A DNA stretch of 64,000 nucleotides from a virus (IMGVR_UViG_2565956708_000007), one strand, 5' to 3'. Counted from the stretch's first letter, positions 37,871 to 41,949 are shown. Translations and numbers: made by a program. Notes: generated by a model from the letters alone, not told the origin.

Positions 37871-38263
37871 ATGTCTGATAAAGTAACAGTAAAGCAAACT
37901 ATCAACAAAGCGACTTCAATCTACAAAATTGAGCACATCACTGTTGGCAAGCCAGGATCTGAACAATACCGTCATGCTTTCGAGCTTGCCGCTCAGCTTG
38001 GTTTAAAACACCCGGATTGCATTGAGCATGTATTTCCGACCTATGCTGATGAGCAATGTACTCATGTTCTTACCGAAGAGGATTTTTTCAGCACTGAAGA
38101 ACGAGAAGGCGTTGATCGCTGCATTGGTGTGATTTGCTCTTCAGTGAGTTATGAGTTATTCCCTAATGTCCATGAAAATGGTGGTATTGGATACCAATTC
38201 CTGTACGAAGGCGATGAGCTTAAATGTTATGAACATGGTCTTCTTATCGAAAGCGTAGAATAA
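37871..38263 (+). CDS. Hypothetical protein (130 aa)
   Basis: ORF upstream of origin. Confidence 0.5.
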   Translation: MSDKVTVKQTINKATSIYKIEHITVGKPGSEQYRHAFELAAQLGLKHPDCIEHVFPTYADEQCTHVLTEEDFFSTEEREGVDRCIGVICSSVSYELFPNVHENGGIGYQFLYEGDELKCYEHGLLIESVE

Positions 38264-38299
38264 TACCCTTCCTTCCAACCGGCTATGTTGGCCGGTTTA

Positions 38300-38400
38300 T
38301 TCAACTTATCCACAGCATAGATCCAATAAACAGATCCCAAAGAGAACCTAGGAAGATCCAAAGAAGATCCCGGATCGCTGTAAGCCGCGCCGTTCATGGC
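38300..38400 (+). other. Plasmid origin core: DnaA box and cluster of six GATC (Dam) sites
   Basis: TTATCCACA at 38306-38314; GATC at 38320, 38333, 38355, 38366, 38373, 38410, mostly within AGATCC heptamers. Confidence 0.75.
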
Positions 38401-38417
38401 CTGAAACGGGATCAACA

Positions 38418-38522
38418 TTGACTATACGCGATTTTATGTTGACTGTGTGCGATTTTATGTTGACTGCACGCGATTTATTGTTGACTATACGCGACAGAAA
38501 CGTTGACTGTACGCGATTTTAG
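38418..38522 (+). repeat. Five direct iterons upstream of repA (incC-type)
   Basis: TTGACTRYRCGCGATTTTATG units starting at 38418, 38439, 38460, 38481, 38503 (21-22 bp period). Confidence 0.85.
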
Positions 38523-38597
38523 AGCCTGAATATTCACAGCTGTTGATAACAGTCATCTAAATTAACGCCAGGCCGCGCCACACATGGAGAAACCACG

Positions 38598-39482
38598 ATG
38601 CCGGAAGAAAGTAAAGGCTTCCTTAGCGTTGAAGAAGTTGCAGGAAATACAGGAGAAATCCACAGCCTGAAGCCCAATAACAACAGCACTATACAACCTA
38701 TCGCTTTGTTGCGCTTAGGTGTGTTTGTGCCAACCTTAAAATCTACCAATGTGGCACTACGTCGCGGATCGTCAGTTACAACAAACACAACGAACGCAAC
38801 TGAAGAACTATCAAGCCTCAAAATTGTTGAGCAGGAAGGCTATGAGGGAATTGAAATTCATGGTCCACGCCTGGATATGGATACTGATTTTAAGGTGTGG
38901 GTGGGCATAACCTCCGCGTTGTTTGACTACGCACCTGATGATGACGGCATAATCACCCTGCCATTCTCCGAGTTTGCCGATCGATGCGGCTATCCACGTA
39001 AGCGCCTTTCAAAGGCGTTCCGTAAAAGTATTGATGACTCTCTGACACGCATTCAGCAGACAGTTGTCAAATTCCGCTTCCCGGCGGCAAAAGGTCATCT
39101 CAATAACATTAACGTCAACTTGTTGGCATATAGCAGCCTGAATACCGAGCTTGATGTTATCGAGATCCAGCCGCAGAAACAGCTATCTGAACTTTACTAT
39201 GTTGACTATAAGCGAATCCTGAAGCTGAAGATGCTGGATAAACTAGGGCGCAAAGAGACGGCCAAGGTACTGTATACATTCTTTGAGGCTCTACCCGCCA
39301 ACCCGGCACCTGTCAGCATTGAGCGCCTTAGAGCGAGGCTTAATCTCAAATCATCCGTTAGCGTGCAAAATAGCGTTATCAGAAAAGCCATGAAAGATTT
39401 GGAAGCTATTGAATATCTTAAATTTTCAGAGATAAAAAACGGCAGGAAAATCGGCTTCCAGATCCATAAGCGCAATCCATAA
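38598..39482 (+). CDS. repA: RepA plasmid replication initiator (P1/P7 family, divergent from P1 RepA)
   Basis: shares blocks with P1 RepA (PVALMRLGVFVP, GPRLDMDTDFK, FVIVHSRNP-like end) but differs in the N-terminus and in iteron sequence. Confidence 0.85.
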   Translation: MPEESKGFLSVEEVAGNTGEIHSLKPNNNSTIQPIALLRLGVFVPTLKSTNVALRRGSSVTTNTTNATEELSSLKIVEQEGYEGIEIHGPRLDMDTDFKVWVGITSALFDYAPDDDGIITLPFSEFADRCGYPRKRLSKAFRKSIDDSLTRIQQTVVKFRFPAAKGHLNNINVNLLAYSSLNTELDVIEIQPQKQLSELYYVDYKRILKLKMLDKLGRKETAKVLYTFFEALPANPAPVSIERLRARLNLKSSVSVQNSVIRKAMKDLEAIEYLKFSEIKNGRKIGFQIHKRNP

Positions 39483-39745
39483 TATTGACTATATGCGATA
39501 GCGAGAAGTTGACTATAGGCGACATTCGTTGACGCTGGTGGATTTTTGCTGGCGTCAATATTCTGCAAGTCGCTATTGAGATGGCTTTTAGGGGCATTTC
39601 ATCGCGTATAGTCAACGTTTCTCCCGACAATATCTTACATAGTCGATCTTTGGTGGAGTTAAATCGACTACAGTCAACTTTTGACTGTAGTCACATCGCG
39701 CATAGTCAACTATTCACATTAACCTTCGCGCATAGTCAACATTTG
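39483..39745 (+). repeat. incA-type iteron array downstream of repA, iterons in both orientations
   Basis: TTGACTATATGCGA, TTGACTATAGGCGA, TTGACTGTAGTCA direct; TCGCGTATAGTCAA, TCGCGCATAGTCAA (x2), GACTACAGTCAA inverted. Confidence 0.75.
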
Positions 39746-39774
39746 CGCGGTTCTCATCAAGCAGTGGTATTGAT

Positions 39775-40584
39775 ATGCAAGAAGAGAAACAACACTACCT
39801 CTACGTTCTGGTGCCAGAGAACGGAGATACTTTTAAAATCGGCATTTCATGTGGTCCATTGGCACGGTTTAAAGGGCTATAAGTGAGTCCCGATTTTGCG
39901 CTTTCACGGGTCTATCGTGGTACGCGTTTGGCAATAGTTAATCTTGAGCGGGCTTTACACGCAACCTTTTTCCCCTGGAATGCGCCGTGGGAGAAAAGCG
40001 CTGGTGGCGGGCATACTGAATGGTTTACACGAGAGTGTCTTGATAAGGTTTTGGCTCATATCGAATATCTAAATGATATGTGGGGAGGGATTCTCGAGCG
40101 CATTAAGTCGAATGATTTACTTCAGCGTCCAGTAGATGCTGCCCGCTCTTTCGAAAAAGAGCTGGATGTTACTTCTATCGTGACTTTCAAAGATGACGCA
40201 GGAATGAGGGACGTGGCTTATGTCTCCATATCTGGCTATGAACCGGACGCGATCCGCGCTCAATGTGAATTGCTGAAAGCAATGTTTATGCTTCGGACTA
40301 AATATTCCTGGGAGACAAGGCGGGTGTGCTTCCCTATGGAAGAGTTAACCGCCACCATTGATTCCCAGCTTTACCACGATAATCCAGAGAAGTTTTTTAG
40401 CCTTTTAGCCGGTAATGGGCTTAACTGTGTGTCCGGGCTGGGGCGAAGTAGAATCCAACATGCCTCGCTCTTCGGTCCCTTCTTTTACGATCGACACGGG
40501 TACTTTGAGGCTGAACTTCCGGCGCTTACGCGTGCTATAGATACTATCGATTTCGAACGATTATTCGCTGCTCTTAGCAAATAA
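39775..40584 (+). pseudogene. GIY-YIG / T5orf172-family protein gene interrupted by an in-frame TAA at 39880-39882
   Basis: ATG at 39775 encodes HYLYVLVPENGDTFKIGIS (GIY-YIG N-terminal motif); TAA in frame; same frame continues ...NLERALHATFF...GGHTEWF. Confidence 0.5.
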
Positions 40585-40591
40585 CACTGAT

Positions 40592-40612
40592 GCCCCTGAA
40601 CGGGGCTTTTTT
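40592..40612 (+). terminator. Intrinsic terminator
   Basis: GCCCC-tgaac-GGGGC followed by TTTTTT. Confidence 0.75.
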
Positions 40613-40705
40613 GTGCCCTCCTTGTAACTCTCAATCGTGCAAAATGAACCAAACATGCAGAGAATGCTATGTACAAGCATCTGTGCATACATTATTATTT
40701 TATGC

Positions 40706-40746
40706 AGCATTTTTAATTAAATTCAAAAATACAGCATAAAGGATGA
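40706..40746 (+). promoter_or_regulatory. Imperfect inverted repeat in parA promoter region, probable par operator
   Basis: TTTATGCAGCATTTTT ... AAAAATACAGCATAAA (14/16 complementary). Confidence 0.5.
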
Positions 40747-40752
40747 CTTTCG

Positions 40753-41949
40753 ATGAGTGATTCCAGCCAGCTTCACAAGGTTGCTCAAAGAGCAAACAGA
40801 ATGCTCAATGTTCTGACTGAACAAGTACAGTTGCAAAAGGATGAGCTACACGCGAACGAGTTTTACCAGGTCTATGCGAAAGCGGCACTGGCAAAATTGC
40901 CTCTACTGACTCGTGCGAACGTTGACTATGCCGTAAGTGAAATGGAAGAAAAGGGTTATGTTTTCGATAAACGCCCTGCTGGCTCTTCAATGAAATATGC
41001 GATGTCAATTCAGAACATCATTGACATATATGAACATCGCGGAGTGCCAAAATACCGGGATCGCTACAGCGAAGCGTATGTGATTTTCATCTCCAATCTT
41101 AAAGGCGGTGTGTCAAAAACTGTATCGACGGTTTCTCTGGCGCATGCAATGCGTGCTCATCCTCATCTTCTGATGGAAGATTTAAGGATTCTGGTTATTG
41201 ACCTTGATCCGCAATCTTCAGCAACGATGTTTTTAAGCCATAAACACTCTATTGGTATCGTAAACGCAACATCTGCACAGGCTATGTTGCAGAATGTAAG
41301 CCGTGAAGAGCTGTTAGAGGAGTTTATTGTTCCTTCTGTTGTACCTGGGGTTGACGTTATGCCTGCGTCGATTGACGATGCCTTTATTGCATCCGATTGG
41401 AGAGAGCTGTGCAATGAGCATCTACCGGGTCAGAACATCCATGCAGTCCTGAAAGAAAATGTGATTGATAAGCTGAAGAGCGATTATGACTTTATCCTCG
41501 TTGATAGTGGTCCTCACCTTGACGCCTTCCTGAAAAATGCTTTGGCCTCGGCCAATATACTGTTTACACCTCTGCCGCCTGCAACGGTTGATTTCCACTC
41601 ATCGCTTAAATACGTTGCCCGCCTTCCTGAGTTGGTGAAACTCATTTCGGATGAAGGCTGTGAGTGTCAGCTTGCAACTAACATTGGATTTATGTCCAAG
41701 TTGAGTAACAAGGCAGACCATAAGTATTGCCATAGCCTGGCTAAAGAAGTGTTCGGTGGGGATATGCTTGATGTTGTCCTCCCTCGCCTTGACGGTTTTG
41801 AACGCTGCGGCGAGTCTTTTGACACTGTTATTTCAGCTAACCCGGCAACGTATGTTGGTAGTGCTGATGCATTGAAGAACGCGCGAATTGCTGCGGAAGA
41901 TTTTGCTAAAGCAGTTTTTGACCGTATTGAATTTATCAGATCTAACTGA
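40753..41949 (+). CDS. parA: ParA partition ATPase (398 aa)
   Basis: MSDSSQLHKVAQRANRMLNV N-terminus recognised as P1 ParA; deviant Walker A KGGVSKT. Confidence 0.9.
   Translation: MSDSSQLHKVAQRANRMLNVLTEQVQLQKDELHANEFYQVYAKAALAKLPLLTRANVDYAVSEMEEKGYVFDKRPAGSSMKYAMSIQNIIDIYEHRGVPKYRDRYSEAYVIFISNLKGGVSKTVSTVSLAHAMRAHPHLLMEDLRILVIDLDPQSSATMFLSHKHSIGIVNATSAQAMLQNVSREELLEEFIVPSVVPGVDVMPASIDDAFIASDWRELCNEHLPGQNIHAVLKENVIDKLKSDYDFILVDSGPHLDAFLKNALASANILFTPLPPATVDFHSSLKYVARLPELVKLISDEGCECQLATNIGFMSKLSNKADHKYCHSLAKEVFGGDMLDVVLPRLDGFERCGESFDTVISANPATYVGSADALKNARIAAEDFAKAVFDRIEFIRSN

Follow-up and report, generated by a model that had tools for sequence, protein, structure and literature searches.

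Two questions are raised by a locus that lies next to the replication genes of a P1-like phage-plasmid: why its reading frame is interrupted by an in-frame stop codon, and what its product does when the gene is intact. The locus belongs to a stretch of viral DNA of 64,000 nucleotides (IMGVR_UViG_2565956708_000007, hereafter the window), which represents a P1-like phage-plasmid whose ParA and ParB proteins are 100 % identical to those of P1. From an ATG at 39775, a frame of 269 codons runs to a TAA at 40582-40584, with a TAA at 39880-39882 as its sole interruption. A preliminary description, made from the sequence alone, had reported this start, this in-frame stop, the continuation in the same frame and a terminator behind it, and the sequence agrees with it throughout; it had offered as explanations a pseudogene, a sequencing error, or expression by stop-codon readthrough or reinitiation. 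We are confident that a two-domain nuclease gene residing within the replicon module is present in the window as a recently inactivated allele, a reading which also takes in a putative homing-type role of the intact protein, weighed separately below.

A nonsense allele of a T5orf172 gene

Read against its relatives, the stop results from one C>T transition, at 39880, by which CAA became TAA, i.e. a nonsense mutation of Gln-36 (Q36*). The window has T at this base, whereas C (CAA, Gln) is found at codon 36 in all 10 CAA-carrying relatives aligned, namely RCS47, Ro157c2YLVW, phi456, SJ46, JL22, 673R5, two 'P1' isolates, pS51_2 and the plasmid of strain 190. The frame as a whole is 99 % identical to genes annotated as intact under the name 'GIY-YIG nuclease family protein', and the position of codon 36 is occupied by Asn in a more distant homolog, P0004 (44 % identical). 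A 61-nt probe carrying TAA and centred on the site matched exactly in one of the 408 gene-carrying complete E. coli genomes, the other 407 being one base off, and PLSDB gave the same answer (one plasmid, entered as two records).

This single genome match is a complete plasmid, pMTY1887_untypable_1 of E. coli TUM1887, in which the Prokaryotic Genome Annotation Pipeline (PGAP) calls a GTG-started open reading frame (ORF) of 702 nt encoding the hypothetical protein WP_023351465.1. It shares with the window the Q36* allele and an identical 233-aa ORF, and differs from it by two synonymous substitutions upstream of the stop (39816 and 39822) and, in the flanks, at 30 of 4,386 shared sites. At least 24 contigs in NCBI, ENA and Logan assemblies further encode this exact 233-aa product (P0081). 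Ten independent contigs, originating from different runs and a metagenome and chosen by exact match to the 233-aa protein, were fetched: nine of them carry TAA, and over 6,702 nt one of these nine (L028, run SRR784053) shows 100 % identity with the window. Pairs of carriers show as many as 61 differences in 4,386 shared sites, and two synonymous haplotypes are seen immediately before the stop, so the allele either spread by recombination or arose more than once. As all family-invariant residues are retained, the inactivation is recent. On these comparisons, the window gene is a rare inherited nonsense pseudogene allele, present at low frequency on diverse P1-like backbones; among the explanations first offered, the pseudogene is thus the one upheld, with a lone C>T at 39880 and the other family-invariant residues intact.

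A sequencing or assembly error hiding a truly intact gene might be suspected, given that one base separates TAA from the intact allele and that TAA is rare (1 of 408 complete genomes). The same T nevertheless recurs in the complete plasmid pMTY1887_untypable_1, where PGAP called the 702-nt ORF, and in nine of the ten independent contigs, including the one identical to the window, and the site lies outside any homopolymer; this explanation was excluded on the strength of the independent plasmid and contigs, and we consider it very improbable. Programmed read-through or another recoding of the stop, by which a full-length nuclease would be made, agrees with a frame perfectly kept on both sides of the stop, but was excluded because conservation would be expected of a recoding signal and TAA is not conserved (407 of 408 genomes lack it and P0004 has Asn), while the stop context is UAA followed by G, an efficient terminator in E. 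coli, and an Rfam scan of 38200-40800 returned no RNA family, which leaves this option a negligible probability.

The assignment to the T5orf172 type of GIY-YIG nucleases beside the replicon, already proposed in the preliminary description, was borne out once the two halves were joined: the Pfam T5orf172 profile (PF10544) matches residues 8-85 of the 269-aa product, with the stop read as X, at E = 2.2e-5 and 25.3 bits, above the curated gathering cut-off of 20 bits. The phrog_681 'endonuclease' profile also matches the nuclease domain (1e-9). Neither the PADLOC-DB defence-protein models (no family at E ≤ 1), nor the NCBIfam profiles, nor a phmmer search against PDB returned a match. Eleven residues are invariant in the 26-member family alignment (Y10, K21, G23, R31, D40, E58, L61, H62, E82, W83 and F84), and the window copy keeps all the family-invariant core residues, including the E82-W83-F84 of the TEWF motif. 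The joined protein has the alpha/beta fold of GIY-YIG enzymes, the frame in the window being broken at codon 36 so that R31 is parted from D40. The first 35 codons had been described as a typical GIY-YIG N-terminus, which holds for the joined protein; the 35-aa piece alone gave only a sub-threshold match to the URI fold in a profile search, and the 233-aa piece alone gave zero domain matches in a Pfam search. In an AlphaFold2 model (mean predicted local distance difference test score of 82.8), the 35-aa peptide accounts for the first helix and all but one of the three core strands. By this model, neither fragment is able alone to form the nuclease fold.

The second domain is less readily classified. 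Residues ~105-269 had no match in Pfam, NCBIfam, PADLOC or PDB sequences, and a profile search of PDB sequences yielded one irrelevant match (E = 0.26). Comparison with the RepA of the window and with P1 RepA detected nothing, either by BLASTP or by profile-profile alignment with hhalign. The domain is modelled as alpha/beta, with a weak resemblance to the WH1 domains of replication initiators. A Rep-WH1-like fold is thus suggested by the model, and we are about evenly divided as to whether it is real.

The nuclease gene within the replicon module

Comparison with P1 by blastn places the gene within a larger replacement. P1 homology stops at 38391, inside oriR and just before the incC iterons of P1, and resumes at 40651, i.e. 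19 nt before Ppar and 67 nt past the nuclease stop codon. Between these points, a module of 2.26 kb (iterons, repA, iterons, nuclease gene and terminator) stands in for the 1.5-kb IncY replicon of P1. In P1, about 190 bp separate the last incA iteron from Ppar and hold no gene, in keeping with the statement of the preliminary description that incA abuts parA; a tblastn search of this spacer with all four nuclease variants described below returned noise only and no nuclease remnant. The preliminary description had pictured an inserted gene, and it is indeed absent from P1; its insertion on its own into the incA-parA gap is not what was found, as it came with the module 38391-40651. The exchange of replicons has itself been published, repA' (p0111) and a gene of unknown function, gp57', having replaced IncY repA in JL22 (PMC9603915).

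The left boundary of the swap (38391 in the window, 1497 in L004) falls within oriR, which implies that the segment with the DnaA box and Dam-methylation sites (GATC) of P1 is common to IncY and p0111, and that the exchange runs from the iterons onward. An iteron-like copy, TGTTGACTATAAGCGA, lies at 39200-39215, inside the repA coding sequence, and matches the origin iteron at 94 %. A 101-aa ORF at 39581-39886 (+ strand) crosses the iteron array, and its 'AHSQ'/'AYSQH' repeats are translated iterons (GCATAGTCAAC), as is the annotated 41-residue N-terminal extension of P0004; neither is, almost certainly, genuine coding sequence. Annotation of the region varies, since phi456 (L005, OR339795.1) labels the nuclease gene 'terminase small subunit' and the RefSeq phage records L001 (NC_042128.1) and L004 (NC_005856.1) label the RepA initiator 'replication helicase'.

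Homologs were sought by word-indexed searches of 5.8 billion proteins and by exhaustive HMMER searches of 1.84 billion representatives. The only full-length relative by sequence was P0004 (44 % identity), and in about 70 other proteins the similarity is confined to the ~100 N-terminal residues. P0004 and two further proteins, P0010 and P0011, sit between a Rep3-type repA and the parA of P1-like elements (L014, L015 and L016); these elements carry three other repA types, each with its own nuclease variant at the same position. P0010 and P0011 are ~40 % identical to the nuclease domain of the window protein, and their C-termini align weakly; a search for the P0010-type variant in GenBank phages found only nuclease-domain cross-matches to the window family. 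In the incA-parA interval, the gene is thus absent from P1 and present in p0111-type elements and three other lineages. All four variants share the same iteron layout, the last iteron ending ~25-31 nt before the nuclease ATG (31 nt in the window), and expression of the nuclease is probably coupled to occupancy by RepA or to read-through from repA. More distant T5orf172 relatives (P0012, P0013 and P0018) occur in unrelated mobile-element contexts with no adjoining rep genes, which indicates that association with repA is peculiar to P1-like elements. On this evidence from gene order, the p0111-type replication module of P1-like phage-plasmids includes the nuclease gene as one of its regular constituents.

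A pair of Logan contigs, L014 (ERR2144811) and L015 (SRR6505940), offers a clean natural swap of replicon modules. Their backbones are nearly the same (the upstream gene product is 99 %, ParA 100 % and ParB 98 % identical), while the RepA of L014 is 84 % identical to that of the window (p0111-like) and the RepA of L015 is 83 % identical to that of P1 (IncY-like). The two sequences cease to be homologous ~175 nt before repA, and homology is regained 84 and 63 nt past the nuclease stops. Their two nucleases show 36 % identity in the N-terminal 100 residues and 25 % in the remainder. Between the window and L014, identity falls from 84 % in RepA to 64 % in the nuclease domain and 32 % in the C-terminal domain.

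The gene is carried by 412 of 5,426 complete E. coli genomes (~7.6 %) and by 401 PLSDB plasmids. Seven of the ~411-421 matching places in E. coli genomes are chromosomal and the rest are on plasmids, which implies that P1-like elements have integrated or been mis-assigned in these seven cases. Besides Q36*, five or more other knockouts, all independent, were found: Q228* in SJ46 and JL22 (C>T at 40456), W103* in strain 190, L93* together with W103* in a Res13 plasmid, two 1-bp deletions amounting to a double frameshift in 673R5, and a 10-bp deletion of codons 16-19 (39822-39831) in the relative L029. In window coordinates, the lesions lie at 40082, 40052, 40456, 39822-39831, 39972 and 40009 (relatives L012, L013, L006/L007, L029 and L002). 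Five of six knockouts fall within the first 103 codons, in a sample that is small and was partly chosen by the 233-aa ORF. Allele-specific probes run on ~410 complete genomes detected W103* in 8 and Q228* in 13, so that the three nonsense alleles (Q36*, W103* and Q228*) together make up ~5 % of copies and ~95 % are intact at these sites. The Q228* carriers JL22 and SJ46 were recovered as circular elements.

Across 11 distinct alleles, the ratio of nonsynonymous to synonymous polymorphism (pN/pS) was 0.32 for the nuclease gene vs 0.01 for repA and for parA at the same loci. Judged by these sequence data, the gene is dispensable and weakly constrained, yet widespread and mostly intact. Since a terminator follows it and parA has its own promoter, polar effects of the stop are unlikely, and Q36* is expected to be harmless to plasmid maintenance.

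Two further records show rearranged or fragmented genes. In P0005 (197 aa, E. coli plasmid locus ABN773_26325), 78 unrelated N-terminal residues are joined to residues 105-223, which implies that a rearrangement or insertion removed the nuclease domain in that plasmid. In L023 (GCA_045575375.1, JBIGSU010000004.1), one of the TAA carriers, parA and parB are each in fragments, which suggests a low-accuracy assembly or a decaying element. The features of the window are collected in Table 1.

Table 1. Position and strand of the nuclease gene, its parts and the surrounding replicon features in the window
Feature	Position	Strand	Basis or remark
T5orf172/GIY-YIG nuclease gene, 269 codons, pseudogene in the window	39775..40584	+	Intact in RCS47, Ro157c2YLVW, phi456 and pS51_2
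5' fragment, 35 codons (MQEEKQHYLYVLVPENGDTFKIGISCGPLARFKGL), with invariant Y10, K21, G23 and R31	39775..39879	+	Translation, family alignment
TAA nonsense codon (Q36*)	39880..39882	+	CAA in 10/10 CAA-carrying relatives aligned; allele probe
Shine-Dalgarno (SD)-like AAGGG (39872-39876), then GTG 39883 abutting the stop (TAAGTG); possible reinitiation site	39872..39885	+	Sequence
3' fragment, 233-codon ORF, with D40, E58, H62, E82-W83-F84 and the entire C-terminal domain	39883..40584	+	ORF/translation
C-terminal domain, aa 105-269	40087..40581	+	Without sequence relatives outside the family
Intrinsic terminator-like G+C-rich hairpin (GCCCC-TGAAC-GGGGC, 40592-40606) and T-run	40592..40616	+	Sequence
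p0111-type replicon module, replacing the P1 IncY iterons, repA and incA	38391..40651	+	blastn vs P1; PMC9603915
Five origin iterons (TTGACTATACGCGA type), 21-22 bp spacing, upstream of repA	38416..38516	+	Repeat search
repA, Rep3/RepFIB (p0111-type) initiator, 294 aa	38598..39482	+	ORF; annotation in relatives; 41 % identical to P1 RepA
incA-like iteron array, downstream of repA	39483..39744	.	Repeat search; two direct copies (39483-39522), four inverted (39602-39744)
parA, protein 100 % identical to P1 ParA, own promoter region downstream of the terminator	40753..41949	+	

Candidate roles of the intact protein

What the intact gene does can be approached from its position, its variants and its losses. 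The role we rank first, tentatively, is that of a homing-type site-specific DNA endonuclease. The N-terminal T5orf172 domain would cut, and the fast-evolving, initiator-winged-helix-like C-terminal domain would recognise DNA. Cuts would fall near the incA/parA junction of related P1-like genomes in which the gene is missing or the replicon is of another type. Upon repair with a nuclease-carrying genome as template, the nuclease would be copied along with the adjacent repA and iterons, and such copying could account for replicon swaps whose right-hand boundary lies just past the nuclease gene. The recurrent knockouts, Q36* among them, would then represent the degeneration phase of a selfish gene. 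Three observations are of the kind expected of such elements. The gene shows presence/absence at a fixed locus, being absent from P1, and present in p0111-type elements and three other lineages, although it always co-varies with repA; it adjoins the boundaries of recombined tracts, which lie 67 nt (vs P1) and 84 and 63 nt (L014 vs L015) past its stop; and it has degenerated repeatedly (Q36*, Q228*, W103*, L93* with W103*, the 10-bp deletion and the two 1-bp deletions). T5orf172 homing endonucleases of ICP1, T5-like and other phages likewise sit at recombination boundaries (PMC10448857).

Several points weigh against this homing-type role. Nuclease activity, target site and homing are all predictions. 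The boundaries coincide with sequence conserved in all P1-like elements (the DnaA-box/GATC part of oriR on one side and Ppar on the other), so that plain homologous recombination through conserved flanks could give the same boundaries without any nuclease. About 95 % of carriers are intact at the three probed sites, and relatives as distant as 44 % identity keep the gene at this position; a gene so often intact and so constant in its location could be useful to its carrier no less than selfish. Finally, the tblastn search of the P1 spacer retrieved no remnant of a nuclease gene.

A second candidate, fairly unlikely in our judgement, is that of a weapon instead of a homing enzyme, i.e. an origin-directed nuclease that a Rep-like C-terminal domain would guide to rival iterons (e.g. 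those of IncY P1) so as to destroy the competitor. The precedent is Odn (ICP1 Gp88), in which a T5orf172 nuclease and a RepA-like DNA-binding domain are fused; it cuts the iterons of a rival replicon and selects for the swapping of replicon modules (PMC8263062). The pairing of every repA type with a nuclease variant of its own would agree with such a role, as would the divergence of the C-terminal domain, the fastest of the three (32 % identity vs 64 % in the nuclease domain and 84 % in RepA). The present protein, however, has no sequence similarity to any RepA tested, whereas Odn is 42 % identical to the RepA_N of its target; its domain order is the reverse of that of Odn; the fold match is weak; and a gene lying beside the iterons of its own replicon must avoid self-cutting. 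P1-like elements, moreover, already exclude one another through their par and immunity functions.

The protein could instead be a non-selfish accessory factor of the replicon (in copy-number control, resolution of handcuffing or origin processing), recruited to RepA or the iterons via its WH1-like domain, which we deem improbable. The position 25-31 nt after the last incA-type iteron, kept in four replicon types, would suit such a factor, as would retention of the gene at 44 % identity and the ~95 % of copies that are intact at the three probed sites. It is less easily reconciled with the IncY replicon of P1, which works without the gene, with the at least six independent knockouts that persist in nature, with a pN/pS 30-fold above that of repA and parA, or with the recovery of the Q228* carriers JL22 and SJ46 as circular elements.

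An alternative of similarly low probability concerns the interrupted allele itself. Translation might restart at GTG 39883, an option raised in the preliminary description, to give a 233-aa nuclease-dead protein acting as a DNA- or RepA-binding regulator or as a dominant-negative form, in the manner of the domesticated T5orf172 protein CapR; domesticated T5orf172 proteins do have a precedent (PMC10448857). Restart is physically plausible, because stop and GTG abut (TAAGTG) and an AAGGG lies 6 nt upstream. The ORF that follows the stop is otherwise intact and its 702 nt are annotated by PGAP as a coding sequence, and the identical 233-aa ORF survives two independent lesions, Q36* and the 10-bp deletion of L029. 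Wild-type alleles, however, also possess this GTG and the SD-like sequence, so nothing has evolved for restart, and the restarted protein would open with an orphaned GIY-YIG half-fold from which, in the structure model, two of three core strands are missing, and would likely be unstable. The carriers were sampled by exact protein match and hence are uninformative on selection, and the Q228* and W103* knockouts do not keep the 233-aa product.

We accordingly rank the homing-type endonuclease ahead of the Odn-like nuclease, and the latter ahead of both an accessory function and a functional restart product. A bolder synthesis, which we regard as possible rather than probable, is that the last gene of each alternative module is a dedicated T5orf172 nuclease whose C-terminus is derived from, or mimics, an initiator winged helix, and which would target rival modules or the empty junction and so drive IncY/p0111 swaps. 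It would then be the plasmid-world counterpart of Odn and of homing endonucleases, Q36* and the other knockouts marking either a phase of decay or an escape from self-harm.

Significance and relation to known systems

By itself the Q36* finding is ordinary, as databases already annotate the gene both intact (WP_001154679.1) and truncated (WP_023351465.1), and it matters little, being one rare loss-of-function allele of an accessory gene that annotation pipelines handle. Of modest interest are the linkage to the replicon, the position at the exchange boundary and the possible Rep-like domain, which together make a testable hypothesis. In the literature library searched, no paper joins P1-like elements with GIY-YIG, and the function of the gene appears never to have been addressed. 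P1-like phage-plasmids of the p0111 type are vehicles of extended-spectrum beta-lactamase and mcr genes. Were a homing-type or origin-directed role true, it would supply a mechanism for the switching between IncY and p0111 replicon types, a trait used in typing, and would extend the concept of Odn and homing endonucleases from phage-satellite conflict to competition between plasmid replicons. The natural knockout series (Q36*, W103*, Q228* and the 10-bp deletion) provides ready-made experimental controls.

The closest known copies of the gene, i.e. those of RCS47 (FDJ53_gp090, YP_009624912.1), pS51_2 (WP_001154679.1), JL22 (gp57) and SJ46 (J46_0008), are 99 % identical to it in nucleotide sequence and occupy the same place between p0111-type repA and parA. 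They differ from the window copy in having CAA at codon 36, JL22 and SJ46 carrying Q228* instead.

From the canonical GIY-YIG nucleases (SLX1, I-TevI and the Seg proteins of T4), the present gene is set apart by its membership in the T5orf172 subfamily and by 'KIG' replacing 'YIG', and its product shares only 11-17 % sequence identity with SLX1. It has more in common with the T5orf172 homing endonucleases (Barth, Dunham and Seed 2023, PMC10448857), with which it shares a catalytic domain at one terminus and a separate putative DNA-recognition region, a location at the boundary of a recombined segment beside essential genes, and a modular, fast-changing non-catalytic half. Unlike those enzymes, the present protein has no CapR, DUF723 or DUF4397 zinc-finger domain as its C-terminal half, and its gene is tied to a plasmid replicon, whereas the phage homing endonucleases are tied to structural or nucleotide-metabolism genes. 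With Odn (Barth et al. 2021), the protein shares a T5orf172 nuclease and a setting of swapped replicon modules, and may share an initiator-like DNA-binding domain, to which its modelled C-terminus bears a weak resemblance; Odn, however, is carried by the enemy of the replicon that it cuts, whereas the present gene sits beside its own.
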